From positions 1 through 49,866 of the forward strand of contig JBDLTQ010000005.1 of the NCBI GenBank assembly GCA_039805745.1: DNA of 49,866 nt, in the 5' to 3' direction. Made by a program: the position numbers and the translations under genes. Below the pieces are notes generated by a model that was not told the DNA's origin, ran no database searches, and was given only the letters and a program-made list of their open reading frames with translations. How positions within the stretch are numbered: position 1 is the first letter of the stretch; each line of letters opens with the position of its first letter. Source of the DNA: Candidatus Parcubacteria bacterium (GTDB lineage: Bacteria > Patescibacteriota > Minisyncoccia > Phycocordibacterales > UBA5272). Below, one piece after another: positions 9,012 through 49,866 of this stretch.

Positions 9012-9047
9012 GTAAAAAACTACTTACTTTTTAGGAAACATATAAAA

Positions 9048-9074
9048 ACTGTCGCAAGCTTTGCTTGCGACAGT
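9048..9074. terminator. Bidirectional terminator between the DoxX gene and tig
   Basis: ACTGTCGCAAGC, loop TTT, GCTTGCGACAGT. Flanked by A5 and T5. Confidence 0.7.
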
Positions 9075-9106
9075 TTTTATTATTATTGTTTTTTTGAACA
9101 ATGTAC

Positions 9107-10189: not shown

Positions 10190-10242
10190 ACTATAGACTG
10201 ACTAGTGTTTTGAGTGTTTTGGTTGATAGACACAAATCACTA

Positions 10243-12175: not shown

Positions 12176-12352
12176 AATTATATGAATTATTTATAAAACT
12201 GAACGTTAAGTTCATCATATCCTAAAAAGAGGAACACGGACCCCTAAAAAAACGAATGGCCGGACTTTTGGTCCGACTCACAATCAATCACATCCGTATT
12301 ACCTATTACTATATAACACTTTTTCACAAAAAGCAAATTTTTGTACCGTATA

Positions 12353-29834: not shown

Positions 29835-30896
29835 TTAGAAAGGATTTTTTGCTCCACGAACTTCAAAGTGAAGATGTGGTCCTGTTGAACGTCCTGTATT
29901 ACCAACAGTACCAATCACTTGGCCTTGTGTAACACTTGTTCCTTGTGTTGTGTAGACATCACGAAGGTGTGCGTATACCGTCTGAACACCTCCTTCATGA
30001 GTAATAATAATAAGATTACCGTACCCACCATTATAGCCACCAATTTTTGCCACAATAACTCGACCACTCGCAGAAGCAACAACAGGGGTACCTGGAGTTG
30101 CGGCAACGTCAATAGCATTATGACCATGAATACCTTGTGTCTTTCTCCCTCCGACAAGAGGACGAACAAGGAAACCGCTTGGTGTTGTGGCAATATACCT
30201 ATCAAGTATTTTTGATGCAGTTTTCTTTTTAGCTGGTGTTTTTGGTTGAACAACTTCAATTTCACCATCTGGAATAATCACAGTACCCCCAGCAATAAGA
30301 GCACCATCTGAAGCTAGTCCGTTATATTTTGCAATATCATCTACGTCAGCTTTATATTTTTTTGCCAAAGAAGCAAGAGTATCGCCTTTCTTTACGGTAT
30401 ATTTAATACCAGTAATTGGAAGAATAATAAGAGTATCTCCTCGAGAGAGGGTGCGACTCTTGAGATCATTTGCCCAAATAATTGTATTGACCGATACTCC
30501 AAATAACTTCGCAACATCAGACAATGTGTCACCTTTCTTTACCTCGTATACAGAAATCTCATCAGTCTCTGGAAAATCAACATCTTCGGTTGAAACACGC
30601 ATAGGACCAGAGATGGCTTGTAATGCTTCATTATTTTCTACAAGCTCTTCTCCTAACGAAGCCATCAAATCTTCTTCTCCTACAACAGTAGGTTTGAATA
30701 CTGCCATAGTCTGCGATGTCGAAACGTCTCCTGTTTCTACATCCTCTTCCTGAACAAAAATAGATTTAATTTTTCCAGTAAGTGTAGAAAAACCTTCCCA
30801 TGCAAAAACCTGTGACGGCACCGAAATAGAAGCAAGTCCGAGGAGAATAACTGCTTTTCTTGCTTTTTCTGTATGAGACTGTGGTTGTACTATCAA
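29835..30896 (-). CDS. Secreted LysM-domain M23 metallopeptidase
   Basis: Signal/TM segment. Two LysM repeats (YEVKKGDTLSDVAKLFGVS, YTVKKGDTLASLAKKYKAD). M23 motifs HNAIDV and GPHLHFEVR. Confidence 0.9.
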   Translation of the reverse strand: MIVQPQSHTEKARKAVILLGLASISVPSQVFAWEGFSTLTGKIKSIFVQEEDVETGDVSTSQTMAVFKPTVVGEEDLMASLGEELVENNEALQAISGPMRVSTEDVDFPETDEISVYEVKKGDTLSDVAKLFGVSVNTIIWANDLKSRTLSRGDTLIILPITGIKYTVKKGDTLASLAKKYKADVDDIAKYNGLASDGALIAGGTVIIPDGEIEVVQPKTPAKKKTASKILDRYIATTPSGFLVRPLVGGRKTQGIHGHNAIDVAATPGTPVVASASGRVIVAKIGGYNGGYGNLIIITHEGGVQTVYAHLRDVYTTQGTSVTQGQVIGTVGNTGRSTGPHLHFEVRGAKNPF

Positions 30897-31085: not shown

Positions 31086-34000
31086 ATGAATGGTGATGCA
31101 AACCAAGAAAAGAACGATTTTAGTATAAAAACTAGACCAGAATACAAAGAACCTTCGTATTCCACTCGAGACGTACAACATCCTGGGGTTTTTCGTCCTT
31201 TGAAAATCAACACACCCACTCATTTTGATATCAATCAACGTGTATTACGTAATGTTGGCGGAGAGTTACGACGTCCAGAAAAGAAAGAAGCTGTTGATCC
31301 TGCTATTCTAGAGCTTGGAAAACTTGCCCAAGAGGCAGGGATTACTATCGTTAGTGAAAACGGAGTTACTCGCATAGAGCTTCCAGAAGACACCTCTATC
31401 AACACCGAGCAAAAAAACCGCCTCACCGAAGAAAATGAGAAGCAAACAACCGAACTAAAAAATCTCCTTGAGAGGACACAAGAAGAGTTAGAAAAATTCA
31501 AAGCAGAAACATCTCTTTTAGAAAAAAATCAGGAATCAACCCTCTCTGCACTTGAAACACTAAATAAAGAATTTGCAAAGTTTGTTGCAGAAAAAGAAGC
31601 AAGTGAAAAACAAGCAGAAGAAAATCTCAAGAATAAAGATGCTGAGATCGCTACTCTAGCAGAACAAAATGCTACACGAGAACAAACGCTACACGCTGAA
31701 AAGAAAAAAAGTGAAGACGAGCTTACAAAAAAACTTCAAGAAGCGACAGTCACTGAAAAAATCCTTACCGACTTTATACCAACCTTTGGTACTTTTAGTC
31801 TTACTCACGAAAAAGCTCAGCGCCTTATCCCAAAACTATCTGACACAACAACACAACAAACCCTACAAGAGCAGGGTGGTTACTTATGGGACCTCGCAGG
31901 ACAGATACACGCAGGGGAGAATATCACACAACAAACCATTGATGATTTTAAAAATACATTAAAAACCTACGAAGCATCTCTCAAAGATATCGAGAATCGT
32001 ATAGATGAACAAGAAAAAAAAGCACAACAAGTACTAGAGAAATCACGAAGCCTCACACCGTGGACAGGGTGGCCTAAAAGCATTGAACTCATCAACAGAA
32101 AAGCTGACAGGAATAAAAATATTCATGCTAAAACATACTGGGAAATAACTAACAGCACAACAGGACTAAAACAAGAACTTACACCTATCGAAAGATGGAA
32201 TGATGTGAAGCTTGAATTTGATCGATCATTTAAAGAATATGAAAACTTCCTCAAACAAGACGAGTCCCTTCGTAAAATAGAACGCTACCCAGACCTTGTT
32301 AAAGCAAAAAACGCTATCATTACAGCTCTTTTTGAGCTTGATCCGGAGCGTGCACTTACTCTTGTGTCTGTACTTAACAACACACTAGATACTACAAAAA
32401 AAGCATGGGAAACCTTCAAAGAACTCGAGGCTAAAGAAAAGAAAAAGAGCGAAGAAGAAAAAGCAAAACAAGAAGCCCTCTCCAAAAAAATAAAACAACT
32501 CGAAACATCTCTTGATGAACTCACGACAATTATAGAGGGATCTTCTTTTAGCGCTGTAAGTGGAATCATAATCACCAACGCAGAAAAAGAGGCTATCAAA
32601 AAGAACATAAAATACGCGGAGAGACAGCTAGGGGAGGTGAAGCAAGCTCCAAATGATGGTGATATAGCAGATGTACAAAATCATGTTGACGCAATCACAA
32701 GCCAGATCAAACAAAAGCAAGATGCCACAAACGGTATCGAAAGAAAGAAGCAGACACAACCACGTTTTGTGCATCGCCCTGTATCTCTTAACACAAGAAT
32801 TGTAGTCAGAGATACAAATGGTACATATAAAGAAACCACCGTCGGTGAAGTAGAGCAGAAACGCGCACTCGATGAAGAAGCAAAGAAAGCCTCTATCATC
32901 GCATCTCAAGAAGAAGTGGTAGAACACTACTTTGCTGTCTTCAATAAAAATAAAAAAGGGTTCCTAGAAACCTTTATTCCAAAAGATCCGAACAATAACA
33001 ATGAGTGGTCAAGTCTTTCCGAAAAAGAAGCAGTGCTTGGTATTATACAAAACTACGAAACAGATATAACAAGCACAATTCTTCGACTCAAGGGACTTCC
33101 AGAAAGTATTGAGACCGCAAATCAGATCAACCAGCTTCAAGAAGAACTTCGCGTTATTGACGATCTTCGTCACCAAAAACTTACAAAAGAAGATTCTTTA
33201 AAGAAGTTTGTACAATCATATCGACCATCAGGTGACAAAAATCTTGAACATCTTAATAGCTACAGAAATACACCAAAGAAAAAAGGATTTTTTGCCCGTA
33301 TTGTTTCAAAAAAGAATACACCAAAAGAAGTACAAGAAGTAGACACACCTCAGACTCTGACAATAGGCACAGACGATACACATGCGCAGACAAGCAACAT
33401 GACGAGACCGTATATGGACGAAGAGATGCATACCGCTATTAAAGACAGGTTATCAGAAAAAGAACAAGGAAACCTTACTATTACAACCAAAGATCAGCAA
33501 CTTGCTCACACACTTCCAGTAGAAGCAGTAAGAGAGCAGGAACCTTTGACTACAGAACAAGTTCAACCAACGCCTTCGCAAGAAACCGAAGAAAACACCA
33601 CCCCTGACACCACAACACCTCTACACACACCTGAAGAAGCAGGTAATCCAAGCACCACTCAAGAAACGACTCTAGAGACAACACCTGAAGCAACAAACCA
33701 AGAAGAGCCACAACCAGAAACCCCTACACAAGCAGTAGCTCCGTCTCCAGAATCATCAGAGGAACGTGCGCGGAAACTACAAGCTATCGACCGTCTCACA
33801 AGCACACTTCGCAGTGAAAAAACAAAAAACTGGGCATCTATTCTTGCACTCGCCGGAGCAGGCTTAACCCTTATGTATGGAGGTAAAGAGTTAGCACAAC
33901 ACATCCACGGAAAGAAAGAAGGGGTAACACTTAGCACTCTTGAGCAACTAGCTTCATGGAAAGACTTCTTCCAAACAGAGGAAGATAAACGTTGGTTACA

Positions 34001-34370
34001 CGATATACACGGCAGTACAAAACTAGGTTTTATCCCTCTTATGCAAAAATGGGCACCTGCTGTTGATATTAATAAAAATAATCCTGCAACGATTGTGGCA
34101 TTATCAGCAATGAAATGTGTTGAGCTTCTCAATAGTCATGAAATGGTCTACGGACTCAACAACACTCAGCGCGAGCAAGTCTGTCAAGTTGTCCGAAACC
34201 TAGAAAAAACAATTCAAGCAACTGATGCCAACAGAAGAGTAGATCCATCTTTCTCACAAAATCCATATTCCTACGCTGATTCTGCAATTACTGTATTTGC
34301 ATTTTATGACAAAGTGCAGGAAGCAATAGCGCAAGCGGAAAAACTAGAAGCTACACGTAAGAAAAAATAA
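31086..34370 (+). CDS. Giant coiled-coil protein (1094 aa) with one TM segment near the C-terminus
   Basis: GAGGTGA SD. About 900 aa of Lys/Glu/Gln-rich coiled coil, then a Pro/Thr/Glu linker. TM segment WASILALAGAGLTLMYGG (about 33832-33885), followed by a C-terminal domain of about 155 aa. Confidence 0.7.
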   Translation: MNGDANQEKNDFSIKTRPEYKEPSYSTRDVQHPGVFRPLKINTPTHFDINQRVLRNVGGELRRPEKKEAVDPAILELGKLAQEAGITIVSENGVTRIELPEDTSINTEQKNRLTEENEKQTTELKNLLERTQEELEKFKAETSLLEKNQESTLSALETLNKEFAKFVAEKEASEKQAEENLKNKDAEIATLAEQNATREQTLHAEKKKSEDELTKKLQEATVTEKILTDFIPTFGTFSLTHEKAQRLIPKLSDTTTQQTLQEQGGYLWDLAGQIHAGENITQQTIDDFKNTLKTYEASLKDIENRIDEQEKKAQQVLEKSRSLTPWTGWPKSIELINRKADRNKNIHAKTYWEITNSTTGLKQELTPIERWNDVKLEFDRSFKEYENFLKQDESLRKIERYPDLVKAKNAIITALFELDPERALTLVSVLNNTLDTTKKAWETFKELEAKEKKKSEEEKAKQEALSKKIKQLETSLDELTTIIEGSSFSAVSGIIITNAEKEAIKKNIKYAERQLGEVKQAPNDGDIADVQNHVDAITSQIKQKQDATNGIERKKQTQPRFVHRPVSLNTRIVVRDTNGTYKETTVGEVEQKRALDEEAKKASIIASQEEVVEHYFAVFNKNKKGFLETFIPKDPNNNNEWSSLSEKEAVLGIIQNYETDITSTILRLKGLPESIETANQINQLQEELRVIDDLRHQKLTKEDSLKKFVQSYRPSGDKNLEHLNSYRNTPKKKGFFARIVSKKNTPKEVQEVDTPQTLTIGTDDTHAQTSNMTRPYMDEEMHTAIKDRLSEKEQGNLTITTKDQQLAHTLPVEAVREQEPLTTEQVQPTPSQETEENTTPDTTTPLHTPEEAGNPSTTQETTLETTPEATNQEEPQPETPTQAVAPSPESSEERARKLQAIDRLTSTLRSEKTKNWASILALAGAGLTLMYGGKELAQHIHGKKEGVTLSTLEQLASWKDFFQTEEDKRWLHDIHGSTKLGFIPLMQKWAPAVDINKNNPATIVALSAMKCVELLNSHEMVYGLNNTQREQVCQVVRNLEKTIQATDANRRVDPSFSQNPYSYADSAITVFAFYDKVQEAIAQAEKLEATRKKK

Positions 34371-37170: not shown

Positions 37171-37974
37171 ATGTATACTTCTCCTAAAAAACAATTTGGT
37201 CAGAACTTTCTTACCTCTATTCCAGCCCGTAACGCAATCGTAGAAGCTGGTGAACTTGTATCATCTGATACTGTTCTTGAAGTTGGCCCTGGAAAAGGCT
37301 TTCTTACAAAAGGTCTTTTGGAAAAAGGGGCTCGTGTAATCGCTCTTGAAAAAGACAGAGATTTACTCCCATTACTACGTGAGAGTTTTTCATCTGAAAC
37401 CGCCTCAGGTGCACTCACTCTTTTAGAAGGGGACGTGCTTGATTTTGATCCAGCGCACAATAGCCTCCGCACTGCGTCATATAAACTTATCGCTAATATT
37501 CCCTATTATATTACTGGTGCTATTATTTCACGATATCTATCTGAAGTGGTTCAGCCGTCAGTAATGGTTATCCTGATTCAAAAAGAAGTTGCTGAACGTA
37601 TCGTTGCGCGAGATGGTAAAGAAACACTCCTTTCTTTATCAGTAAAAGTATACGGTGATCCAAAAATTGTCTATAGAGTTTCTCGTGGAAGTTTCTTTCC
37701 TGCACCAAAAGTAGACTCTGCAGTGCTTAAGATAAGCACCATTTCACGAAAAAACTTTCTTCATACCTATCACGAATCCATATTTTTTAGACTTATTCAT
37801 GCAGGATTTGCCCATAAAAGAAAATTTGCACTCTCTAATATAAAAGAAGTATTCAAAGATGTAGACGTTACAGCTTTATTCAAAGAAGCGCAAATATCTG
37901 AAAAAATAAGAGCGGAAGATGTTACACTACAAGAATGGTTGACGCTATCCTCGAAATTAGTTACACACTCGTAA
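37171..37974 (+). CDS. rsmA: 16S rRNA (adenine1518/1519-N6)-dimethyltransferase
   Basis: GQNFL, SAM motif EVGPGKGFLT, and NIPYYIT. Confidence 0.93.
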   Translation: MYTSPKKQFGQNFLTSIPARNAIVEAGELVSSDTVLEVGPGKGFLTKGLLEKGARVIALEKDRDLLPLLRESFSSETASGALTLLEGDVLDFDPAHNSLRTASYKLIANIPYYITGAIISRYLSEVVQPSVMVILIQKEVAERIVARDGKETLLSLSVKVYGDPKIVYRVSRGSFFPAPKVDSAVLKISTISRKNFLHTYHESIFFRLIHAGFAHKRKFALSNIKEVFKDVDVTALFKEAQISEKIRAEDVTLQEWLTLSSKLVTHS

Positions 37975-39326
37975 CTATTGCACTTCTTTTTCTTTTCATA
38001 CAAACATCTGTTCATAAAAAGAAAAAAACACTTCTATCTCATTGGATGTTATTTGGTTTTCTTTTTAATCTCTATAGTTTTAGTTGGCTCTATACAGTGT
38101 ATCCACTTCCATGGATACAGGAGGGGACTCTACAACTACTTGGTATCGGTCTTCTACATCTCATTCTTTCTGTTGTGGCTGGTGTTTGTTTTTTTGTTGT
38201 TGCTTTTGCTTTTTATACAGAGCGTCATCGACATATTCGTCCACTGCTCTTTGCGACGCTCCTTACTATTGCTGAACTCTTACGTTCATATGCTATTTCA
38301 CTTCTTTTTTATAGCAAAGACACAACTCTTGAGCTTCATTTTACAGCAAGCACCTTAGGGAATGCATTATCAACAACACCTTTTGTAGAGTTCGCATATT
38401 TTGGTGGCACCTTTGCACTTACTTTTGTACTTGGTTATCTGCTTTATAGCAGTAGCGCACTCAAACAACATTTTTCTTATATATATCACATACTATTATG
38501 TGTAGCGATCCTTGTTGTACTGCACATAGCTATTCCTGTTACCTCTCTTAAAAAAGGAACTGTTGCTGGTGTTATCACCACAAACTTTCCAAAACCAAAA
38601 GAAGGGGAGCACTCTGCTTATTTTGCTTCTACAACAGAGGTGGTCTATGCTCTCACAACAGAACTAGCAGAAAAAGCGTCACAAGCACATATAGAGGTAC
38701 CTACTTTTATTGTGTATCCAGAAGATACACGTTTTATATCTCATCTCTCTGATGACAACAAAGAGGTGCTTTCAAAAAAATTTAGATCTACTTATTTTAT
38801 TGATGGTGACACAGTACGTTTAGAGCGTGGCATTGCTAATATTTCTCTTTTTTATAACCTTACAACAAAAGAGTACCTCTATCGTGGTAAAAGTTTTCTT
38901 ATGCCTTTTAATGAGTACATTCCAACAATTTTTAGTACTATTTTCAAAGTATTCGTCTCTAAAAAAGCATTATCTACCTATGAGCAACAGCACACCTATA
39001 CCCCGATGAGGAATAACACCGTAGCGTCTCTTGGCACGCACAGAGTCGCTACCCTTATTTGTTCAGAAATTCTTTCCTATAGAACAATACAAAACATAGG
39101 AGACGAAAATCCTCATATTGTCTTTTTCCAATCACATCTAAGCACATTCCATAATAATCCTTGGTTTGTCATGCATTTACGATCATTTACAAAAATAGCA
39201 GCAGCACAGCTACGAACACCACTTATTAGTAGTACCAATAATGCTCCGGCATTTATTATTTCACCTTATGGATCTATATGGAAAAAAATCCCAACAGGTA
39301 ACAACTCGGTACTTATTAAATTTTAA
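37935..39326 (+). CDS. lnt: Apolipoprotein N-acyltransferase-like protein (polytopic membrane domain plus CN-hydrolase domain)
   Basis: About 6-7 N-terminal TM segments. The C-terminal domain has a candidate Glu/Lys/Cys triad: VYPEDT, RGKSFLMPFNEYIP, ATLICSEIL. Overlaps rsmA by 40 nt, so the start is uncertain. Confidence 0.7.
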   Translation: MVDAILEISYTLVTIALLFLFIQTSVHKKKKTLLSHWMLFGFLFNLYSFSWLYTVYPLPWIQEGTLQLLGIGLLHLILSVVAGVCFFVVAFAFYTERHRHIRPLLFATLLTIAELLRSYAISLLFYSKDTTLELHFTASTLGNALSTTPFVEFAYFGGTFALTFVLGYLLYSSSALKQHFSYIYHILLCVAILVVLHIAIPVTSLKKGTVAGVITTNFPKPKEGEHSAYFASTTEVVYALTTELAEKASQAHIEVPTFIVYPEDTRFISHLSDDNKEVLSKKFRSTYFIDGDTVRLERGIANISLFYNLTTKEYLYRGKSFLMPFNEYIPTIFSTIFKVFVSKKALSTYEQQHTYTPMRNNTVASLGTHRVATLICSEILSYRTIQNIGDENPHIVFFQSHLSTFHNNPWFVMHLRSFTKIAAAQLRTPLISSTNNAPAFIISPYGSIWKKIPTGNNSVLIKF

Positions 39327-39423
39327 TACGTACTCTCATTGTACAGAGTGCTAGTGTTATACACAGCTACTTCTGTAGTACCTATAGAGTAGGTATGTAT
39401 ATCACGCTATACTGTGTACTAGT

Positions 39424-40344
39424 ATGGAACAACAACCAATGACAACCAAACGTGCACTTATCGTTGTAGGTATTACAGGATTTCTTATTATACTCATGTT
39501 TATTATCCCGGGAGAGTGGGTAGGGGTCGGCACTTCCACTGGAGTAACAAAAAAACCACTTATTCTAAAAACAAAAGAAGAGCTTGGTCTACTCAACAAA
39601 GATACTGACAATAATAATACTGCAGACTGGAAAGATCTTCTCAACACCACAACAAACGAGAAAGTGAGAGCGGTTGCAAACACACTAACAGTAACAGAAG
39701 AGGATAAGACTCGCCTCAACGACAAAAACAACCTTACAGCATCACTAGGGAAAAATCTCTACACCGTATCTGCATACCTCCAAAAAAATGGAACTGTTTC
39801 TGAATCTGATCAACAAAAATTAGCAGAAAAACTTGTCACCGAAGAAGCAAGTAGAATCACTGTGACCACCTATACCACTACAGATATCACAACAACAAAA
39901 GATACCACACTCCTTGCAAAAAAAACATATGGTAATGCACTTGCTACACTTCTCAAAAAAGCTAACACCTACAACCTAGGGGATAGTGATGTAGCTGTTA
40001 TAAAAGAATACCTTACCTCAAAAGACGCGACACTACTTGATTCACTTATTACAAAACGAGTGCATATTGATGAAATCATTACCAACCTTCGCACAATGCC
40101 TGTGCCGTACTCTGCTGTGCCATATCACATGCTTCTTCTCAACACTATTTCTGCCTACAGGACAACTATTGACGGCTTATCACAAGCAGACGCTGATCCA
40201 CTTCGAGCATATGTAGCATTTAGCTCTCTTCTTACCATAAACAAAGAGCTTATTACATCTATGGCTACAGTTATACATTATTTTGTTCTTGAAAAAGTAA
40301 CCTTTACACCTCAAGAAGCTGGATACTCATTACTACAACGGTAG
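39424..40344 (+). CDS. Membrane-anchored hypothetical protein, first gene of the T4SS-like operon
   Basis: N-terminal TM segment LIVVGITGFLIILMFII. Thr-rich ectodomain. Confidence 0.6.
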   Translation: MEQQPMTTKRALIVVGITGFLIILMFIIPGEWVGVGTSTGVTKKPLILKTKEELGLLNKDTDNNNTADWKDLLNTTTNEKVRAVANTLTVTEEDKTRLNDKNNLTASLGKNLYTVSAYLQKNGTVSESDQQKLAEKLVTEEASRITVTTYTTTDITTTKDTTLLAKKTYGNALATLLKKANTYNLGDSDVAVIKEYLTSKDATLLDSLITKRVHIDEIITNLRTMPVPYSAVPYHMLLLNTISAYRTTIDGLSQADADPLRAYVAFSSLLTINKELITSMATVIHYFVLEKVTFTPQEAGYSLLQR

Positions 40345-40355
40345 TTTTATTAGGC

Positions 40356-42005
40356 ATGAATATATTAAAATCTATGAAACACATTCTTCTCACAATTGCT
40401 TTTCTTGGAATACTCGCTCAACCAATACAATCACATGCAACGAGTGTTATCGGCGCAACAGAACCAACACAGCTTCTCAATCATGCTGAACTTATACCAA
40501 CAGCGATAGCAACCGTCGCGACCGAAATCAATACACTTACCGACATGACATGGAATACTATACTTGATCCGATTGCTAATGAACTTATCAATGTAACACT
40601 TGAAGACACCTCTGATGACATTCTCTCTTGGATACAAGGTGGGTATGGTGGTGATCAGCCACTTATTATAGAAAACCCCGATGACTACATCACCGAACAG
40701 GGGGATTTAGTGGTACGAGAAGCTCTCACCGCTGTTCCAGAAGACAGTATTTTTGGTGAAAGTATCTTTGCTTCTATACTAGAAAGTAATAAAAAAACAA
40801 CACTCGAGGAAGAAATAGAGGCGATTAGTGATTCTCGTATTCCAGAACTTGTACAAAAAAATCTCTGCAACGAAGAATCTCTTTCTTCACAAACAGGAAA
40901 CTCTGAGGAAAAGCAAGAGCTCTATGACTACGCATGTAGTGGTGATCCGTCTGACCCAGAAACAGCAGCAAAACTCCAAGACCTCTACGAACAAGACCCT
41001 TCTGTTGCAGGGTGGGATGGGTGGCTAGCTATCACCGACGGAAGAAGAGCAGAGAATGAATATACAAAGAACACACTTGCCATAGAAACAACAGCAGAAT
41101 ACAAAAACAGAAAAGAATACCTTGAGGAACGAGGCCTCTACGATGGAGAAAACACCATCAGCCAGACAGAGTGTGTAGAAAAAGAGATTGATTTTATGGG
41201 GGAAGAATTTTGTGTTGAGAAAAAAACTATCTCACCAGGAAACAGTGTCCAAAACTATCTTGACCTCGCATCAACTGCAGGATTCCAACGTATGTTTAAT
41301 ATTGACGGAGGAGGGACAGGGGTTGGTATCTTATCTGGTTTCGCCATGAAAGCACTTAATGCTGGGCTCAGTAGTGCTCTTGCTACTATCAAAAGAGAGA
41401 TTACTTCATCATCAGGGGGGTCACTCACTAATACGACTTTTACACTCAACTCAATAACCCCTTCATCTCAAGATCTTCTTAATAACCCTTCAGCTAAAGC
41501 GTCTCTCTTATCAACTATGACTGCCCAGACAGAAAGAGACAAGGCTTCATTATCTGAACTCGAACAAATTGATAGAAATTATCTCTCTCTTGTAAATAAT
41601 TATGAAAACAAAGTCGCTCAGGTAAAGCAGTGCTACGACTCACTTGTAAGCAATAACCTTGTGCAAAGCACTGACAGTCGTGTTGTTACAGCTACAACAT
41701 TTTACAATAATAGAATGTCCACCATTAATGAAATTAAAAATACAATAGAAAAAGACACTGAAGCGATAACATCATCAAGGGAAGGAATAGCTGGGTTTAT
41801 CCAAAAAATACAAGCATCTAACTCAACAGAAGAAATTAATGCAATGTTTAGCTCTTACACATCAACAGTAAAAAGCCTTAGACTTAGCTCTGTTCTATCA
41901 GAACGAAAAGGGGAATACGCAGTACAGCAGAGCAACGTTTCTCGAGACACTCAACCAGAATCACTACTCCAAACTTGTAACAATATTCGAAACGGTAGTA
42001 ACTAG
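40356..42005 (+). CDS. Secreted hypothetical protein (549 aa)
   Basis: Signal peptide LLTIAFLGILAQPIQSHA. Starts 11 nt after the upstream gene. Confidence 0.65.
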   Translation: MNILKSMKHILLTIAFLGILAQPIQSHATSVIGATEPTQLLNHAELIPTAIATVATEINTLTDMTWNTILDPIANELINVTLEDTSDDILSWIQGGYGGDQPLIIENPDDYITEQGDLVVREALTAVPEDSIFGESIFASILESNKKTTLEEEIEAISDSRIPELVQKNLCNEESLSSQTGNSEEKQELYDYACSGDPSDPETAAKLQDLYEQDPSVAGWDGWLAITDGRRAENEYTKNTLAIETTAEYKNRKEYLEERGLYDGENTISQTECVEKEIDFMGEEFCVEKKTISPGNSVQNYLDLASTAGFQRMFNIDGGGTGVGILSGFAMKALNAGLSSALATIKREITSSSGGSLTNTTFTLNSITPSSQDLLNNPSAKASLLSTMTAQTERDKASLSELEQIDRNYLSLVNNYENKVAQVKQCYDSLVSNNLVQSTDSRVVTATTFYNNRMSTINEIKNTIEKDTEAITSSREGIAGFIQKIQASNSTEEINAMFSSYTSTVKSLRLSSVLSERKGEYAVQQSNVSRDTQPESLLQTCNNIRNGSN

Positions 42006-42103
42006 TAAACCAGACTCAAAAGTATTCCCGACTATCCACAAAATACTGCGAATAACATAAAAAATTAACGCAGTGTTTTCTACTTATGTGATAAACTACA
42101 GCT

Positions 42104-44986
42104 ATGCTACATTTGAGGAAACTCATTGTTATTTCTGCTATCATTTTAACTACTTTTAGTAGTTTTATTGTTCCAACTAAAACAAAAGCTTCTGCACAAT
42201 CAGCAAGTGCTTCTGTTCTTAGTGAATTTTCAAATTCATCTTTTCAACAAACCTATACAGACGCTCAAAAAAATCTCTATAACAATGAAATAAACATTCT
42301 TAGAACGATTCTTCAAGATAAAGCGTCTGAACTACAGAGAGGCAACCCCTCATACTTTGCGGTAGGAGAAGATCATGCAGAAAATGAAAAAGCATACAAA
42401 ATACAAGCTTTAAATGATTTTAAAACCCATCTTAATAACGCTATTTCTGAACAAACAAATACTGCACTTAAAAAAGCGCTGAATGACACTCTATCACTAG
42501 CTGATAGTCTCCACACCAAAATAACAGTTGACTCCTTAACACAAGATACTCTTAATGCTCAAGGAGGAGGAACTACTGTGGCAAATGCTGAACAAACTCA
42601 AAATGCGGCAAATGAAGAACTGCAAGGGGTACGAGAAGATGGTTCTGTAAAAAAAGAAGAGTGTAAAATTACAAACTGGAAAGTAAGTGTCTGTGTTTCA
42701 GAACTCGTCGAATGGTTCATCAAAAACGTTATTCTAGAAATCGCTGCTGTTATCTTTTACTTCGCAGCGAATATGCTGAATTACTCTATACAAATAGGTA
42801 TACTTCAGTTCAAAGACTGGGCACCTGACACTCTCTATCCGATCTGGGTTATTGTTCGACAAATCATCTCTCTTTTTGTTGTCTTTATCGGACTCTGGCT
42901 TGGTTTTATGTACATACTAGGAAAAGCAGACACTTTCGAAAAATACATTCCGTGGGTAATTATCTTCGCGTTATTTATCAACTTCTCATACCCTCTCTCT
43001 CGTACCGCAATAGATATTTCCAATATTATATCTCTTAATGTATATGCAGCGACAGTTGGTCCAGAAGTGCTGACCAACCCAGAATCATTTACTGGATCTG
43101 CCGGTGGTATATTATTACAAAAACTTGGACTAAGCACCCTTGTTACTGAAGCCAACAAGTCACAATCACTCGGGTCCAGTAATCCTTCTGCTGGACTTGG
43201 TGCCATAACAGGTATTCCTGGTACTATTATGGTGGTTGTGTTTATTCTTTATGCTGCGTATGTCATGTTTAAAGCCACATTCATACTCGCTATTCGCACA
43301 GGGGCTCTTGTGTTTCTTACCATCGCGTCACCGTTTCTCTTTATCGATAGCCTCTTACCAGTGCTTGGAGACAAAGCTCAAAAAATACGCACAATTTTCT
43401 TTGAACAGCTCGCTGTAGGCCCTGTGTTTATGATACTCTTTGCCCTTTCTCTTAAATTCATCACTCTTTTTTCAGGGGAAGGAGGACCTATCAAAACGAC
43501 TTTTGGTAGCGGAGGATCTACTCCTCAGGTATTCTTTAGTGTTCTTATGATGCTTATCATGCTTCATATCACTCTTAAGGTGACAAAAGATTTATCAGGC
43601 GCAGTCGGAGAAGGTGTTTCGAATATGATAGGAAAGGTTGGAGGTTTTGCAACAGGGGCAGCTGTTGGGGTAGCTTCAGGTGGGGCTGGACTCCTAGCAC
43701 GAGGAACAATAGGAAGAGCTGCGGGAAAACTTCGTGATAGTTCGTGGGTAACAAATAACCAAAACTCTGCTGTTGGTCGTCGTGTGTATGACATGTCTAA
43801 CTCTCTTGCAAAAGGGTCTTACGATCTACGCAACTCGTCTGTTGTAGCTGGTGGTTTTAAAAAAGCTGGTATTACATTAGGAGCAGGAACAAAAGGAGGA
43901 TATGAGGAACGTGCTCAAATGGTAGCAGATGATCTTCGTACTCGCGCTTCACGAATAAAAACACATTATGAGCGTGATGAGTTTAAAAAAGATAAGGATG
44001 GGAATATTATGTATGATGAAAAAGGTCTTCCAGTATACGCCAACAGAAAAGGCGATGTGAATAAAGAAGGCATGGAGGCGTATAATACATTTGTTAATAA
44101 TCCAGGAAAAAATCTAGAACTAACTGGTGCACAGAAAGAGAAGTTCAAACAAGAGCTAGCTGAGAAAAAAACAGAAAAAGACATGGCTCACTACAATAGC
44201 CTACCTGATGAAGAAAAGGACGCAAAATACCAAGAAATGAAAACTCATTTTGAAGAGCTTAAAAAAACTGACCCTAAACTCAAGAATCCAGAAACATTAT
44301 CACTTGTTCAAACCCTTGGCACAATAGAAAAAGGATTTTCTGATGAAAAGAAAAAGTTTAACAAAGAAGTAGACACACTTAGCGCACGCTACGCAGGAAC
44401 AACAGGAAAAGATGATGCAGATATCCTCGCTAATCGTGTACGTCTCATCAATGGTATCGATGACATAAAGAAAAAACAAGCACTTATTGATAAAGTGGCC
44501 AATGATGCTGTCACAGAGTATAACAAGCTACAAGATTCTGATCCGCAAAAACGTACTGAGAAGCGTGCCAACTTCATGAATGCGCTTCCTACGATTATAG
44601 CAACCGAGGTAAATAAAAAACTTGGAGAAAAAGAACAGCCTCTTGCGTATGATTTTAGAAACCAAGTAGCTACTACACTAGACAAGCAAAAAGAATCTGG
44701 ACCAACTAGCCCAATTACCAGAGGAGCCACATCTGGTGGATATGACTTTACTCAACAGACAGCCAAGATACTACAAAACCAAACAAACTCTGGAGACAGC
44801 CAACCACTTGCAACAAAAGAAATAATGACAGAGGAAGAGATTGCTACTAGACGCAAAGAAAAACTAGCCCAAGCAACAACCTTCGCACAAGAAGAAATGA
44901 ATACTCAGACACAGGCACATGAAATGGCAGGAGATATTCTTGCGAGAGTACGAGCAAATTCAAGACGAAAAAAACATAACCCATAA
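42104..44986 (+). CDS. Polytopic membrane protein, VirB6/TrbL-like candidate (960 aa)
   Basis: Signal/TM segment, then an ectodomain of about 190 aa. At least 6 TM segments lie between about 42716 and 43604, followed by a Gly-rich patch and a Lys/Glu-rich tail of about 400 aa. The call rests on topology plus position upstream of PrgI/VirB4. Confidence 0.6.
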   Translation: MLHLRKLIVISAIILTTFSSFIVPTKTKASAQSASASVLSEFSNSSFQQTYTDAQKNLYNNEINILRTILQDKASELQRGNPSYFAVGEDHAENEKAYKIQALNDFKTHLNNAISEQTNTALKKALNDTLSLADSLHTKITVDSLTQDTLNAQGGGTTVANAEQTQNAANEELQGVREDGSVKKEECKITNWKVSVCVSELVEWFIKNVILEIAAVIFYFAANMLNYSIQIGILQFKDWAPDTLYPIWVIVRQIISLFVVFIGLWLGFMYILGKADTFEKYIPWVIIFALFINFSYPLSRTAIDISNIISLNVYAATVGPEVLTNPESFTGSAGGILLQKLGLSTLVTEANKSQSLGSSNPSAGLGAITGIPGTIMVVVFILYAAYVMFKATFILAIRTGALVFLTIASPFLFIDSLLPVLGDKAQKIRTIFFEQLAVGPVFMILFALSLKFITLFSGEGGPIKTTFGSGGSTPQVFFSVLMMLIMLHITLKVTKDLSGAVGEGVSNMIGKVGGFATGAAVGVASGGAGLLARGTIGRAAGKLRDSSWVTNNQNSAVGRRVYDMSNSLAKGSYDLRNSSVVAGGFKKAGITLGAGTKGGYEERAQMVADDLRTRASRIKTHYERDEFKKDKDGNIMYDEKGLPVYANRKGDVNKEGMEAYNTFVNNPGKNLELTGAQKEKFKQELAEKKTEKDMAHYNSLPDEEKDAKYQEMKTHFEELKKTDPKLKNPETLSLVQTLGTIEKGFSDEKKKFNKEVDTLSARYAGTTGKDDADILANRVRLINGIDDIKKKQALIDKVANDAVTEYNKLQDSDPQKRTEKRANFMNALPTIIATEVNKKLGEKEQPLAYDFRNQVATTLDKQKESGPTSPITRGATSGGYDFTQQTAKILQNQTNSGDSQPLATKEIMTEEEIATRRKEKLAQATTFAQEEMNTQTQAHEMAGDILARVRANSRRKKHNP

Positions 44987-44991
44987 ATACC

Positions 44992-45735
44992 ATGAGCTAC
45001 CCATCGTATATTTCACAAAACATAGAGGAGCTTATCGATAGAGCACCTGATCATATCCTAGACATCATTGAAAGTGATGACATTCCTAATGTAACTATCA
45101 CTCTAGGTAATAACTATAAAATACCCGTAGGGGACCAAGCTTCACTTTCTGATATTATTACCTTTACTATTATTGGAGCTCTTCAGACAGAAGATGTAGT
45201 TCAAGCCTTGCAAGACATGGCTCATGTTTCCTATGATGATGCAGTTAATATTGCCACAGATCTTGAGTTTTCTCTTTTTGAAAAAGCCCGTGTCACATTA
45301 CTCAAAAAAGAAGGGGAGATAAAAACACTTGAGTTTAATGGACAGCGATCAAAAGAAGAACTAAGAAAAGAAATTATGGATACCACAAAACGTGAGAGTG
45401 GTTTACATAAAAACCAAAGCACTGTAGCACCAAAAAAACCTTCTATCATAGCCCCTGGGTCTCGTTCACAGCTTATGGAGCAGTTACAAGTTATCGGCAA
45501 TATACCAGATGATGAAGAGATAAATGAACGCCTGCAACACATCCATGAGCAAATAGCAGCTCTCAAAAAACAAGAAGATGATAACAGTCTTGAATCTACT
45601 GTTGCGCTGAAGAGTTTTATGTTTGGTGAAAAAGGTAAAGAAATGGTTACCCCTTCACTACGACCAGCAACCTACAGTGTTGCTCCGAAAGAATACAATG
45701 TAGATCCATATCGAGAAATAACAGAAGAAAGCTAA
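44992..45735 (+). CDS. Soluble hypothetical protein (247 aa) in the T4SS-like operon
   Basis: ORF starting 5 nt after the upstream stop. No motif recognised. Confidence 0.6.
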   Translation: MSYPSYISQNIEELIDRAPDHILDIIESDDIPNVTITLGNNYKIPVGDQASLSDIITFTIIGALQTEDVVQALQDMAHVSYDDAVNIATDLEFSLFEKARVTLLKKEGEIKTLEFNGQRSKEELRKEIMDTTKRESGLHKNQSTVAPKKPSIIAPGSRSQLMEQLQVIGNIPDDEEINERLQHIHEQIAALKKQEDDNSLESTVALKSFMFGEKGKEMVTPSLRPATYSVAPKEYNVDPYREITEES

Positions 45736-45802
45736 AAGCTGTAAACAATCCTAAACCTCTGGTTGTAGCTATGTAGATACTCTTGTGTGATATACTATTG
45801 TT

Positions 45803-46240
45803 ATGCAATTTCGTGTTCCACAATTCATTGACATTGAGGACAAAGTCTTTGGTCCATTCACCTTAAAACAGTTTGGATACATGGCCGGGGCTGGTGGTTT
45901 TTCTTTTCTTATCTGGACTTTTATCTCCATAAAATTCTTTGCAATTTTACTTATCGTGCCTGTTGCTGGACTTTTTCTTGCTCTTGCTTTTGTAAAAATA
46001 AATAACCGCCCTTTTGGTGACATGCTTGAAAGTGCTTTTAATTATTACACCAATCCAAAACTTTACACATGGAAACAACCAATGGCAGAAAATAAAAACG
46101 ATCCTATCAATCAAGTCGTATCAGACACTCAGAAAGAGATTGTTATTGAAAAAACAAATCGTGACCGTATTCATGATGTAGCACTAGGACTTGATGTCTA
46201 TGAGCGTAACTCACAGAAAGAAGAAGACTATACGAACTAA
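45803..46240 (+). CDS. PrgI-family (VirB3-like) small membrane protein
   Basis: MQFRVPQFIDIEDKVFGPFTLKQFGYMAGAGG plus two TM segments. This is the characteristic PrgI N-terminus and size. Confidence 0.7.
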   Translation: MQFRVPQFIDIEDKVFGPFTLKQFGYMAGAGGFSFLIWTFISIKFFAILLIVPVAGLFLALAFVKINNRPFGDMLESAFNYYTNPKLYTWKQPMAENKNDPINQVVSDTQKEIVIEKTNRDRIHDVALGLDVYERNSQKEEDYTN

Positions 46241-46265
46241 CTAAGGTATACTATCTATAGTACGT

Positions 46266-46913
46266 ATGGCAAAAGGATCAGCTACTCAACAATTCGTTCC
46301 TATTGATAAAGTTCGCGATGGTATTATCGTCCTCAAAACAGGGGAGCTTCGTGCTATTCTTATCACAAACTCTCTTAACTTAGGATTAAAAAGTGAAGAT
46401 GAGCTTACTGCTGTGATCTCTCAATTCCAGAACTTTCTCAACTCACTTGATTTTCCTGTTCAATTCTTTATTGAATCCAGAAAACTCCACATTGCTCCCT
46501 ACCTCAACCTTCTCCAAGAACGTAGTAAACTCGTCAAAGAAGACCTTCTTAAAATACAGATACATGAATACATTGGATTTATTCAAAAATTTACAGAAGA
46601 AAGCAACATCATGACGAAACATTTCTTTATTAGCGTTCCGTATTATGTACAAACGAATACTCAAGCATCCTCCCCATCACCGATAGACATGCTTTCATCG
46701 CTTGCTGTAGGCCAGACCACACGAGGACAACAAGATCCTTTTGAGTTAAGCCGTATTCAACTTGAACAACGTATTGCGGTTATCATACAAGGTCTTTCTC
46801 GTTTTGGTATTCGTGCACAAAAACTTGACACTGAAGAACTTGTGGAACTTTTTTATAAACTTTTTAATCCAAGTGATGACGCTGGGCACGCACCTAAACT
46901 ACAACAATCATAA
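46266..46913 (+). CDS. Hypothetical protein resembling the N-terminal domain of VirB4-type ATPases
   Basis: QQFVPIDKVRDGIIVLKTGELRAILITNSLNLGLKSEDE...FQNFLNSLDFPVQFFIES parallels the opening of Gram-positive VirB4 proteins and the start of the next ORF. Confidence 0.55.
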   Translation: MAKGSATQQFVPIDKVRDGIIVLKTGELRAILITNSLNLGLKSEDELTAVISQFQNFLNSLDFPVQFFIESRKLHIAPYLNLLQERSKLVKEDLLKIQIHEYIGFIQKFTEESNIMTKHFFISVPYYVQTNTQASSPSPIDMLSSLAVGQTTRGQQDPFELSRIQLEQRIAVIIQGLSRFGIRAQKLDTEELVELFYKLFNPSDDAGHAPKLQQS

Positions 46914-46919
46914 CTATCT

Positions 46920-48743
46920 ATGGGACTTTTTGACTTTCTCAATACGAATAAAAACAAAACAGCAACACCTGTTTCTCCTATTCTTCCAGAACAGGTATAT
47001 AAGATTGCAGAAATGCAGCTCAGAGATATCATAGCGCCGAGCGCTCTTGAAATTCTTCCAAAATCAATCAACTTAGGCACTTCTATTGTGCGTTCATTCT
47101 TCGTTATTTCATACCCTCGATATCTTACTGATAACTGGCTTAGTCCACTCATCAACCTTGATAAAGTGTTTGATATAGCTATCCATGTTGTACCACTTAA
47201 CACCGGTGAGGTAATGAAGTCCTTTCAAAGAAAAGTTGCTGAGGTAGAGAGCCAGATTATGACACGTGAAGAAAAGGGAATGGTGCGCGACCCTACACTT
47301 GATGTTGCATACCAAGACCTTGAAGATCTTCGCGATGGTCTCACTCAAGCTCAAGAAAAAATGTTTGAAGTCTCTCTTTATATTAATCTCTACGGGGAAT
47401 CCAATGAGGAACTTGATCGTGCCGAAAATGAAATAAGAAATATCCTAGAGAGTAAACTTGTGTATATAAAACCTTCTCTCTTTCAGCAAGACACGGGATT
47501 CATTTCAAATCTTCCACTTGGTCAAGATATGCTTGGAATAAAAAACAAACTCAACACCTCCCCACTCTCTTCATTTTTCCCATTTGTTTCATTTGATCTT
47601 TCTTCAGACAAAGGGATTCTCTACGGTCTTAATCGTCACAACGGTAGTCTTATTCTTTTTGATCGATTTTCACTTGAAAACTACAACTCTATCATTTTTG
47701 CAAAATCTGGTTCTGGTAAAAGTTACTTTACAAAACTTGAGATTCTTCGCACTCTCATGTTTGATACAGAAGTTATTATTATTGACCCAGAACGAGAATA
47801 TGAATTCCTTGCGGAATCTGTTGGCGGGCGTTACTTTAATATATCGCTTATAAGTGACCACCACATTAATCCTTTTGATCTCCCACACCCAACAGAAGAT
47901 GAATCACCGTCTGAAGTACTTCGTAGTAACATCGTTACTCTCGTTGGTCTTTTCCGTGTAATGCTAGGAGGACTTACACCAGAAGAAGATGCCATTATTG
48001 ATCAGGCAATCACTGAAACATATGCTCTTAAAGATATTAATGGTGATACCGACTTCACCTCTCTTGAACCACCACTTCTTTCTGACTTTGAAATGGTACT
48101 AGATGGAATTGAGGGGTCAGAAAGCCTTCTTCAGCGACTTCAAAAATATACAAAAGGGACATGGGCTGGTTTTATCAATGAGCCAACTAATATTGATATC
48201 AATAAAAAACTTATTTGTTTCTCTATTCGTGACATGGAAGAAGAACTTAAGCCTGTAGCGATGTATATTATTACACACCACATCTGGAACTCTGTTCGAA
48301 AAACACTTAAAAAGCGCCTTCTTATTGTGGATGAAGCGTGGATTATGATGAAAAATGAAGACACTGCATCATTTCTCTTTGGTCTTGCAAAACGTGGAAG
48401 AAAATATTTCCTTGGTTTAGCAACAATCACCCAAGACGTTGGAGACTTTCTCAAATCACCATACGGACTTCCTATTATTACCAACTCATCAATACAAATC
48501 CTTCTTAAACAATCACCGTCATCTATTGATTTAGTACAAAAAACATTTAACCTCACCAATGAAGAAAAATACCTTCTTTTGGAGTCAGGTGTTGGGGAGG
48601 GTATATTCTTTGCTGGACTCAAACATGTGGCACTCAAAGTTGTGGCATCATATACTGAGGATCAGATCATCACAAGTGACCCAGCTCAACTTCTTAAAAT
48701 AAAGAAGATGAAAGAAGAGCTCAATGAATCAAAAGGTCTATGA
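46920..48743 (+). CDS. virB4: VirB4/TrbE/PrgJ-type T4SS ATPase
   Basis: Walker A FAKSGSGKSYF and Walker B RLLIVDEAW. Has a VirB4-like N-terminal domain (RSFFVISYPRYL..WL). The TGA stop overlaps the next ATG (ATGA). Confidence 0.88.
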   Translation: MGLFDFLNTNKNKTATPVSPILPEQVYKIAEMQLRDIIAPSALEILPKSINLGTSIVRSFFVISYPRYLTDNWLSPLINLDKVFDIAIHVVPLNTGEVMKSFQRKVAEVESQIMTREEKGMVRDPTLDVAYQDLEDLRDGLTQAQEKMFEVSLYINLYGESNEELDRAENEIRNILESKLVYIKPSLFQQDTGFISNLPLGQDMLGIKNKLNTSPLSSFFPFVSFDLSSDKGILYGLNRHNGSLILFDRFSLENYNSIIFAKSGSGKSYFTKLEILRTLMFDTEVIIIDPEREYEFLAESVGGRYFNISLISDHHINPFDLPHPTEDESPSEVLRSNIVTLVGLFRVMLGGLTPEEDAIIDQAITETYALKDINGDTDFTSLEPPLLSDFEMVLDGIEGSESLLQRLQKYTKGTWAGFINEPTNIDINKKLICFSIRDMEEELKPVAMYIITHHIWNSVRKTLKKRLLIVDEAWIMMKNEDTASFLFGLAKRGRKYFLGLATITQDVGDFLKSPYGLPIITNSSIQILLKQSPSSIDLVQKTFNLTNEEKYLLLESGVGEGIFFAGLKHVALKVVASYTEDQIITSDPAQLLKIKKMKEELNESKGL

Positions 48744-49723
48744 TAAAAGACTTCTTTATCATAGGTAGTCTGATAGGGTCACTATGTCTTGGATCATGTG
48801 TTGTCTATGCTCAATCACAAGTATCTGGAAAAATCACCCTTAAACCAGAAAACCCAGAACCAAAAAGTGAAGTAACTCTAACCTTTTCAAGTTACAGTTT
48901 TGATGCGGCAACAGCGTATATCTCTTGGAATGTTAATGGTACTCAAGTACTTCGTGGTGAAGGGGAGACGATACTCACACTTCAAGTGGGAGATGTTGGG
49001 GAAAGATATATCGTAGTAATGAAAGCAGAAACAGTAACAGGTCTCAGCATCGAACAGCAAATTACCGTAACTCCGACATCTGTCATACTTCTCTACGAAG
49101 CACCTCAAAGCTACACACCGGTTCTCTATCGAGGGAGATCACTTCCATCAACCTCTGCTCAGGTTCGTGTGACAGCATTACCATTTATAAGTGAAGATGG
49201 TAAAGTATTACCCCCGTCATTACTTTCATATGTATGGTATGTCGGTAACACTTCTATAAAAGAAGCAAGTGGTAAAGGAAAACAAACAGCCAATCTTACT
49301 CTTGATTATCTCAGTAACAAAACAGATATAAAGGTTGTTGTTCGTTCCCCATTTGGCACCACCGCCACAAAATCGATCACTATTTATCCGCATGAAATTA
49401 TGCCACTTCTTTATACATATAATGAACTTTTTGGAACTGATTTTCAAAAACGTATTCACAAACGTTTCGAAACAACACAAGATTTTAGTATCATTGTTGA
49501 GCCTTTTTATGTGTCAAAAAAATCTCCTATTAATGAAAAAACAATGTCATTTAAGTGGCTTTTAAATGGACTTGATTTTACTCCTTTAGGTGGACAACTT
49601 CTCACCTTTACGCCTAAAAAAGGTGACTTTGGATCAAAGACATTACACATTTCTGTATACGGACCAGACAAGCGACTTCAAAAAGGTGAGACTTCTGTGG
49701 AACTTATTTTTGATACACGCTAA
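48740..49723 (+). CDS. Secreted beta-rich hypothetical protein (327 aa)
   Basis: Signal peptide IIGSLIGSLCLGSCVVYA. Translationally coupled to virB4. Confidence 0.65.
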   Translation: MIKDFFIIGSLIGSLCLGSCVVYAQSQVSGKITLKPENPEPKSEVTLTFSSYSFDAATAYISWNVNGTQVLRGEGETILTLQVGDVGERYIVVMKAETVTGLSIEQQITVTPTSVILLYEAPQSYTPVLYRGRSLPSTSAQVRVTALPFISEDGKVLPPSLLSYVWYVGNTSIKEASGKGKQTANLTLDYLSNKTDIKVVVRSPFGTTATKSITIYPHEIMPLLYTYNELFGTDFQKRIHKRFETTQDFSIIVEPFYVSKKSPINEKTMSFKWLLNGLDFTPLGGQLLTFTPKKGDFGSKTLHISVYGPDKRLQKGETSVELIFDTR

Positions 49724-49728
49724 CACCT

Positions 49729-49866
49729 ATGGCATCATCGTACACACCCCTCGAATCCGGCTATCTCTCTACCTTTGGTTCTATTCCAACATTCTCAGGA
49801 AGTGGGGGTTCTTTTTATTCAAGTGTGGTATTCGTTTATCTTCTTTTCTTTGCAATTATTGTTGTT
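49729..49866 (+). CDS. Partial ORF (5' end only), small hydrophobic protein; a T4SS membrane/pilin-like component is possible
   Basis: The ATG lies 5 nt after the upstream stop. MASSYTPLESGYLSTFGS...SSVVFVYLLFFAIIVV runs off the window end. Confidence 0.35.
   Translation, partial: MASSYTPLESGYLSTFGSIPTFSGSGGSFYSSVVFVYLLFFAIIVV

Follow-up and report, generated by a model that had tools for sequence, protein, structure and literature searches.

The window analysed here is a stretch of 49,866 nucleotides from Candidatus Parcubacteria bacterium (assembly GCA_039805745.1, contig JBDLTQ010000005.1), comprising the whole of one contig (C5) and ending inside a cluster of genes for a type IV secretion system (T4SS). 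We consider it highly probable that this locus represents, in Paceibacteria, the chromosomal T4SS of the Patescibacteria clade, a non-conjugative system that is inherited vertically, descends from conjugation machinery of the mating-pair-formation (MPF) class MPF-FATA and serves an epibiotic, host-dependent lifestyle. The kind of system is not new, having been published between 2023 and 2025. Nearly all members of a huge radiation of host-dependent bacteria have a T4SS of the Patescibacteria class, and no other T4SS is, to our knowledge, known to be essential to its owner's growth. The present locus gives a Paceibacteria example resolved in full, with all 11 genes placed and with a VirB2-like pilin array and two conserved ATPases resembling type IV coupling proteins (T4CPs) located. 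The new details are a membrane hairpin common to two different hydrolases, its homogenisation within genomes and the effect of this on assemblies. The source genome, a freshwater Paceibacteria metagenome-assembled genome (MAG), comprises 730,701 bp in 37 contigs and is ~96% complete. Comparisons were made with 31 related genomes and with 80 related loci collected by VirB4 similarity, the latter from MAGs labelled Paceibacterota, Nomurabacteria or Parcubacteria.

An earlier note on this DNA had described nine co-directional open reading frames (ORFs), set 5-98 nt apart but for a single ATGA overlap, and all are present as claimed. They lie on the plus strand from 39424 to the window end, with successive gaps of 11, 98, 5, 67, 25, 6 and 5 nt and an ATGA overlap of 4 nt between the seventh and eighth genes (g7 and g8). 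The ninth gene starts at the ATG at 49729 (MASSYTPLES...), not in the GTG frame at 49590 that a mechanical ORF list had offered. The core machinery is encoded by the following four genes.

42104..44986, plus strand: g3, extended VirB6-like polytopic membrane protein, 960 aa, so assigned from topology and weak TrbL/VirB6 matches of orthologues
45803..46240, plus strand: g5, PrgI/VirB3-like membrane protein, 145 aa, from Pfam PrgI
46266..46913, plus strand: g6, TrsD-like, the VirB4 N-terminal domain as a separate polypeptide, 215 aa, from NCBIfam
46920..48743, plus strand: g7, VirB4 ATPase of the MPF-FATA (CD1110) type, 607 aa, from NCBIfam conju_CD1110 and Pfam

Profile searches bear out the PrgI and VirB4 assignments that had been made from the letters alone, both scoring above their cut-offs. 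The match of g5 to Pfam PrgI has an E-value of 8.5e-11 (42.7 bits, cut-off 27), while g7 matches NCBIfam conju_CD1110 at 7.1e-112 (375 bits, cut-off 325) across profile positions 183-733 of 752, with additional Pfam matches to P-loop_TraG (3.7e-27) and AAA_10. The N-terminal ~180 residues missing from g7 are supplied by g6. This gene, previously called VirB4-N-like, does match TrsD (8.6e-6) and the N-terminal part of VirB4_plasma (5.6e-10) in NCBIfam, both under the curated cut-offs, together with positions 1-125 of CD1110 and, weakly, Pfam TraC_F_IV. On these matches VirB4 is split into a TrsD-like N-domain (g6) and a CD1110-type ATPase (g7). For g3, topology prediction gives a signal peptide, an ectodomain of ~170 aa, six transmembrane (TM) helices and a K/E-rich C-terminal tail of ~470 aa. 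Weak matches suggest that it may be an extended VirB6, Pfam TrbL/VirB6 being matched by 4 of 33 orthologues (best 5.5e-4).

Gene order is kept across the 80 related loci, as the synteny check proposed in the earlier note had sought to establish: PrgI-TrsD-VirB4 occur in that order in 77-79 of them, g3 is present in 66, g5 in 77, g6 in 79 and g8 in 78. The window VirB4 is 67-91% identical to the VirB4 proteins of these 80 Patescibacteria MAGs, from which we infer its placement in the published Patescibacteria VirB4 clade. Among the 31 related genomes, 29 contain VirB4 at 67-88% identity, with one match each save for one split, broken copy. Within the genus the core is well conserved, median identities being 86% for VirB4, 68% for PrgI and 66% for TrsD as against 64% for the housekeeping protein KsgA, and the exported parts are far less so (g1 33%, g2 29%, g8 45%). 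The G+C content of the cluster, 0.37-0.40, does not differ from that of the rest of the genome. In one related locus, L068 (DALYDA010000004.1), the PrgI and TrsD genes at 8819-9881 lie on the opposite strand to virB4, a local inversion or misassembly.

The cluster is indeed cut by the window end, as had been noted, its ninth ORF being the first 46 codons of a 269-aa protein. Its continuation was recovered from a Joint Genome Institute (JGI) contig, L111, that is 100% identical to window positions 39729-49866 and runs on through the full g9, then g10 and the start of g11 before stopping in the second copy of a 390-bp exact repeat. The full-length g9 of the source organism is also found in a protein collection (P0056). 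The remainder of g11 begins another contig of the same genome, C19, which opens with an SLT domain followed by yidC, dnaA and, in the place of dnaN, an ORF of 363 aa. An identified dnaN comes solely from the same-genus genome G016, where the order is UvrD-KsgA, the 11 cluster genes, then YidC(-)-DnaA-DnaN, the last cluster gene again carrying SLT. We join C5 and C19 because L111, a repeat contig of double depth and P0056 link them. Homologues of g10 and of the g9 C-terminal part were not found in the genome assembly by tblastn, because the ~2-kb piece between the repeat copies was dropped from the MAG. The completed cluster has 11 genes in ~13.5 kb, follows uvrD and ksgA and ends at yidC/dnaA. 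The earlier view that it is chromosomal, and not part of an integrative and conjugative element (ICE), agrees with this extension, which holds hydrolase genes, a membrane-anchored protein, yidC and dnaA, and in which a relaxase, a T4CP and an integrase were not found. The cluster itself likewise yielded no integrase.

That no VirD4 or relaxase was evident had also been remarked upon. This stands for the cluster and the sequence downstream; elsewhere in the genome there are two paralogous T4CP-like ATPases, each with TrwB_AAD_bind and TraG-D_C domains, at C8:16005-17888 (627 aa) and C20:35747-38476 (minus strand, 908 aa), and each is matched in 30 of the 31 related genomes. The genome, 96% complete, has no match to PF03432, PF01076 or PF08751 (relaxases) or to PF02534 (T4CP), a search that did not include MOBC, MOBM, MOBT and MOBH profiles. 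A VirB2-like pilin array, similarly unlinked to virB4, occupies C31:29242-33637. It has five PF18895-positive genes of 341, 170, 127, 184 and 85 aa, three of them above the cut-off, and includes one unrelated 258-aa ORF; the 341-aa protein contains two pilin-like matches. The gene for the 627-aa T4CP-like ATPase is flanked by those for a DUF4015 glycosyl hydrolase and an LTD/PKD surface protein.

The window ends within the following two features.

49729..49866, plus strand: g9, first 46 codons of a 269-aa protein, cut by the contig end (full protein P0056, contig L111)
49746..49866, plus strand: first 121 bp of the 390-bp exact repeat, copy 1 (Logan contig, L111)

The protein g9 consists of a VirB2-like two-helix membrane hairpin, a disordered Thr/Gly-rich linker and a compact alpha/beta domain. 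In an AlphaFold2 (AF2) model of an orthologue the hairpin (H30-61/H65-95) is confident and the alpha/beta domain spans residues 136-265. Alignment of orthologues shows H205, H208, D216, H260 and H262 of this domain to be invariant, giving a pattern of H, H, D and HxH. When a g9-type model was compared with the viral structures of BFVD, three of the top five matches were M15/M15A, with E-values of 0.064-0.68 that are not significant (Peptidase M15A at 0.064, M15 at 0.30). Sequence searches with the C-terminal domain found no match in Pfam, PHROG or the PDB, other than one weak HNH match in PHROGs. We regard g9 as a probable zinc peptidase of LAS/M15 type. A comparison of the full-length g9-type model with the PDB by Foldseek placed histidine kinases at the top, a result rejected as artefactual, since it reflects how the helical hairpin and the alpha/beta domain are laid out.

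The same hairpin recurs in g11, there joined to an SLT lytic transglycosylase domain. Pfam SLT recognises the organism's own copy on C19 marginally (21.6 bits, cut-off 21.3), the G016 orthologue at 8.8e-6 and a fusion protein in locus L072 at 1.6e-9. Genes 9 and 11 of G016 share an identical N-terminal ~100 aa that includes two hydrophobic helices. Pfam T4SS_pilin (PF18895) is matched by 3 of 24 g9 orthologues (best 3.2e-7), leaving 21 of the 24 same-genus copies without a match, and positional analogues in L090, L069 and L072 match it at 3.9e-7 to 8.6e-6. The earlier note saw neither VirB1 nor VirB2 in the visible part, but counterparts exist: the truncated ORF begins a fusion of pilin hairpin and hydrolase, whose SLT paralogue is on C19, and the pilin array is on C31. 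In two distant relatives the slot after g8 is differently occupied. That of L072 (12754-15087) holds a single 777-aa protein with T4SS_pilin and SLT, and that of L064 (12789-15687) holds a 483-aa unknown protein and a 475-aa NlpC/P60 protein.

At the level of DNA the repeat is the hairpin module that g9 and g11 share. Copy 1 of the repeat starts within g9 and copy 2 opens g11. A 390-bp Logan contig from the source freshwater metagenome overlaps window positions 49746-49866 at one end and C19 positions 1-121 at the other, and the depth of the repeat contig is approximately the sum of those of its neighbours (29.1 compared with 18.7 + 10.6; 81.7 compared with 32.3 + 31.5). On L111 the repeat occurs at 10018-10407 and 12201-12299, the latter segment being equal to window positions 49746-49844. 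Relatives show the same near-identity. Where both genes are assembled (14 distinct relatives; 17 loci, three being the same contigs twice), the g9 and g11 hairpin modules of one genome are 94-100% identical in DNA over 230-406 bp, with a median of 99.4% and a single locus at 83%, while identity between species, where alignable, is ~71%. Judged by these figures, the two hairpin modules are homogenised within genomes by concerted evolution. Neither the shared hairpin nor its homogenisation is found in the portion available to us of a recent phylum survey (Quinonero-Coronel et al. 2025, PMC12102498).

The window stops at 49866 because of this repeat, and it is not alone in doing so: in ~11 of the 36 closest loci the contig likewise breaks off at the repeat, 1.0-1.3 kb past virB4, and many g9 homologues in the protein collection come from orphan contigs of 1-2.5 kb. 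Since the repeat, ~0.3-0.4 kb long, breaks short-read assemblies ~1.1 kb past virB4, surveys would be expected to under-count the VirB1-like and pilin-like genes of Paceibacteria.

We consider it unlikely that g9 and g11 are enzyme-bearing minor pilins which VirB4 and VirB6 load into the T4SS pilus, at its base or its tip. Were this so, the filament would carry a peptidase head and a glycosidase head through its own or the host's peptidoglycan. Gene conversion would keep the hairpins identical since both fit one loading site or pilus lattice, while the lattice itself diverges fast between species, and the arrangement would be a new way to arm a type IV pilus.

The remaining complete genes of the window portion encode accessory and exported proteins.

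39424..40344, plus strand: g1, 306 aa, N-terminal TM helix and all-alpha ectodomain, lineage-specific T4SS accessory protein, from topology and an AF2 model
40356..42005, plus strand: g2, Sec-signal secreted protein, 549 aa, from signal peptide prediction
44992..45735, plus strand: g4, acidic protein, 247 aa, no predicted TM helix
48740..49723, plus strand: g8, Sec-secreted protein with Ig-like beta-sandwich repeats, 327 aa, from its signal peptide and Pfam matches of orthologues

In g1 the TM helix comprises residues 11-29. Its AF2 model is fully helical with a mean predicted local distance difference test (pLDDT) score of 85.7, and no Foldseek match in the PDB was better than E=0.09, nor was there a sequence match in Pfam, NCBIfam or the PDB. 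The gene is syntenic in 31 relatives. The earlier note had proposed seeking a VirB8/PrgL/TcpC-type fold by structure prediction and Foldseek; the candidate g1 was rejected as VirB8-like (NTF2-like, alpha+beta) on the strength of its confident all-alpha model and the lack of a PDB fold match, and g4 has no TM helix. The latter is presumably cytoplasmic. It bears a near-invariant C-terminal DPYRE motif, with D238, P239 and Y240 invariant in the orthologue alignment, and has a within-genus median identity of 54%; no Pfam, NCBIfam or PDB match was obtained, with the orthologue set included.

The secreted g2, found in 26 relatives, is the fastest-evolving member of the cluster and has no family match in Pfam or NCBIfam, orthologue sets included; it is a candidate surface or host-contact part, or a substrate. 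The start of g8 forms the ATGA overlap with the VirB4 stop. Its 44 orthologues gave Pfam matches to BiPBP_C (13, best 3e-5), Ig_3 (7) and PKD_6 (6, best 3.2e-6), and the family profile matched the Ig domains of phage Hoc in the PDB weakly, at 1e-3. From contig L111, g10 is a membrane-anchored protein of 432 aa to which no Pfam or NCBIfam family is assigned. Its family profile reaches TolB in the PDB at a non-significant 0.18, and one orthologue has an added PG_binding_1 domain.

Comparison with described systems places the locus among its published relatives. According to the available sections of the phylum survey in Microb Genom (Quinonero-Coronel et al. 2025, PMC12102498), Patescibacteria possess an MPF-FATA-related VirB4 clade, and TrsD, PrgI and VirB6 are encoded close to virB4, to which VirB1 too is linked in Paceibacteria. 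Pilins form arrays, T4CPs are unlinked, relaxases are near-absent, and the loci are close to dnaA, dnaN and ksgA. As far as those sections describe the Paceibacteria arrangement, nothing essential differs here: VirB4, TrsD, PrgI, a putative VirB6, a linked hydrolase, pilins, the lack of any relaxase found, T4CP homologues elsewhere in the genome and position all agree. The T4SS of Candidatus Southlakia epibionticum ML1 is Gram-positive-like, has predicted pilins, lacks a recognisable relaxase in its cluster and was shown by transposon sequencing (Tn-seq) to be essential for epibiotic growth (Wang et al. 2023, Cell, PMC10633639). Its locus, SEML1_0006-0019, has peptidase and lysozyme homologues directly downstream of virB4, as stated in the part of the survey at our disposal (PMC12102498). 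That organism belongs to the class Saccharimonadia and ours to Paceibacteria. There the pilin array is part of the cluster; in our genome a separate contig bears the free pilins, and the pilin-like modules of the cluster itself are fused to hydrolases. A 2025 review calls the Patescibacteria systems newcomers to the T4SS superfamily (PMC12857230).

Monoderm MPF-FATA systems, such as pCF10 Prg, pGO1 Trs and CTn2 CD1110, share with the locus VirB4, PrgI, TrsD and, putatively, a VirB6-like channel. They also have membrane-anchored cell-wall hydrolases, a glycosidase and a peptidase, in the logic of PrgK/TraG, which are here on two proteins rather than one. Unlike them, the present locus yielded no relaxase, linked T4CP, PrgB-type adhesin or VirB8-like (PrgL/TcpC) fold, and it has VirB2-like pilins, is chromosomal and origin-adjacent, and occurs in 29 of the 31 related genomes. 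The absence of a coupling protein encoded with the machine is a likeness to the T4CP-less Bordetella Ptl, Brucella VirB and Helicobacter ComB systems. Since the cluster encodes no T4CP, substrates may come from outside the cytoplasm, in a Sec-dependent manner resembling that of Ptl, or may be imported as by ComB; the cluster encodes two proteins, g2 and g8, with Sec signal peptides of the cleavable type. Those three systems, however, are diderm and possess VirB7, VirB9 and VirB10, whereas the present architecture is monoderm and two T4CP-like ATPases are encoded elsewhere in the genome.

By analogy with the MPF-FATA and VirB systems, a VirB4 hexamer, its N-domain provided in trans by g6, would dock on a membrane platform of PrgI and VirB6. 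Where the machine assembles, the cell wall would be opened by two enzymes, g11 (SLT) and g9 (M15-like). VirB4 would pull VirB2-like pilins, those of the unlinked array, from the membrane and polymerise them into a pilus or conduit, and the fast-evolving exported proteins g1, g2, g8 and g10 could be its wall-spanning, host-contacting parts. Southlakia genetics suggest that the machine would serve host contact and macromolecule transfer, not conjugation. It is, by such analogy, probably a machine for host interaction in a reduced, host-dependent bacterium.

Several observations weigh against this interpretation. Essentiality is known from the Saccharimonadia species Southlakia alone, not from Paceibacteria (PMC10633639). 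The window's own g3 has no VirB6 match in Pfam, and the earlier VirB6-like call stands on topology and on the four matching orthologues but not on this copy. No VirB8-like component was found, the best-placed candidate, g1, being all-alpha, although structure prediction did not extend to g2, g8 and g10. For g9, the matches to M15/LAS peptidases are under significance, and its hairpin in the organism's own genome does not reach Pfam T4SS_pilin, P0056 itself not having been scanned directly; when the hairpin module was aligned by hhalign with the free pilins of the genome, the probability was a weak 14.5%, with the second TM helix alone aligned. Joint action of the T4CP-like ATPases or pilin array with the cluster is putative. 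Finally, operon status derives from spacing alone, promoter and terminator consensus scans being at background and sigma-70 not enriched.

Three other explanations were weighed. The best of them, to which we nevertheless give only a slender chance, is that the machine imports DNA or other nucleic acid, like Helicobacter ComB or Sulfolobales Ced, and so feeds a cell unable to make nucleotides. With ComB it shares the lack of a linked T4CP and of any relaxase found, and the VirB4 P-loop region matches the DNA-import ATPase CedB weakly (1.5e-9, far under the cut-off). A preprint (10.64898/2026.06.21.733656) further describes a cultivated patescibacterium that takes up host RNA and has tubular structures, maybe T4SS pili, and a monophyletic VirB4. 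On the other side, deletion of comEC in Southlakia abolished competence but not viability (PMC12857230), and the essential role of the T4SS is therefore not exercised via ComEC-dependent transformation. Searches of Pfam and NCBIfam recognised no DNA-binding or nuclease component in the cluster, and the two conserved T4CP-like ATPases could recruit cytoplasmic substrates for export; the direction of transport is itself not readable from sequence.

A little less probable still is a locus that translocates nothing and builds only an adhesive pilus of VirB2 type or an attachment organelle. The pilin array, the pilin-like modules within the cluster, the Ig-like and other exported proteins and the lack of a linked coupling protein would all suit such a structure, but the two conserved T4CP-like ATPases, and a VirB6 extended by a large cytoplasmic tail, exceed the needs of a pure pilus.

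The last explanation, that the cluster is the mating-pair-formation module of an ICE or its decaying remnant, with relaxase, coupling protein and integrase past the contig end, has next to no probability and was rejected: although VirB4 falls in the CD1110 conjugation family, PrgI and TrsD are families of conjugation systems and the cluster runs past the window end, housekeeping genes flank it on both sides (uvrD and ksgA upstream, and downstream, after g9-g11, yidC and dnaA, with dnaN in G016), none of the three relaxase families is present and no integrase was found, synteny holds in 80 loci with VirB4 in 29 of the 31 genomes, composition is unremarkable, no ORF is disrupted and conservation of the core exceeds that of KsgA.

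Upstream of the chromosomal T4SS cluster, a promoter-like element was noted from its recurrence in relatives.

39357..39412, plus strand: promoter-like element upstream of g1, consisting of GTTATACAC (a DnaA-box-like 9-mer with 1 mismatch), ~40 nt and TATACT, the last ~12 nt before the ATG

The pattern GTTATCC(T/A)C ... TATACT ... ATG, with spacings of ~35-40 and ~10-12 nt, recurs 5' of g1 in ~9 same-genus relatives, for example L021, L023, L025, L029, L035, L036, L038 and L043, and suggests a near-leaderless operon start.

Between ksgA and g1, at window positions 37935-39326 and overlapping the end of ksgA by 40 nt, lies a gene for a 463-aa membrane protein with a weak Lnt N-terminal match (4e-7). 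It is detectable in about half of the same-genus relatives and probably stands outside the T4SS. Two further neighbouring genes are found upstream of uvrD: one at 29835-30896 on the minus strand, for a cell-wall hydrolase of LysM-LysM-Peptidase_M23 architecture, and, adjoining it at 31086-34370, one for a 1094-aa coiled-coil protein with weak 14-3-3 and KASH matches.

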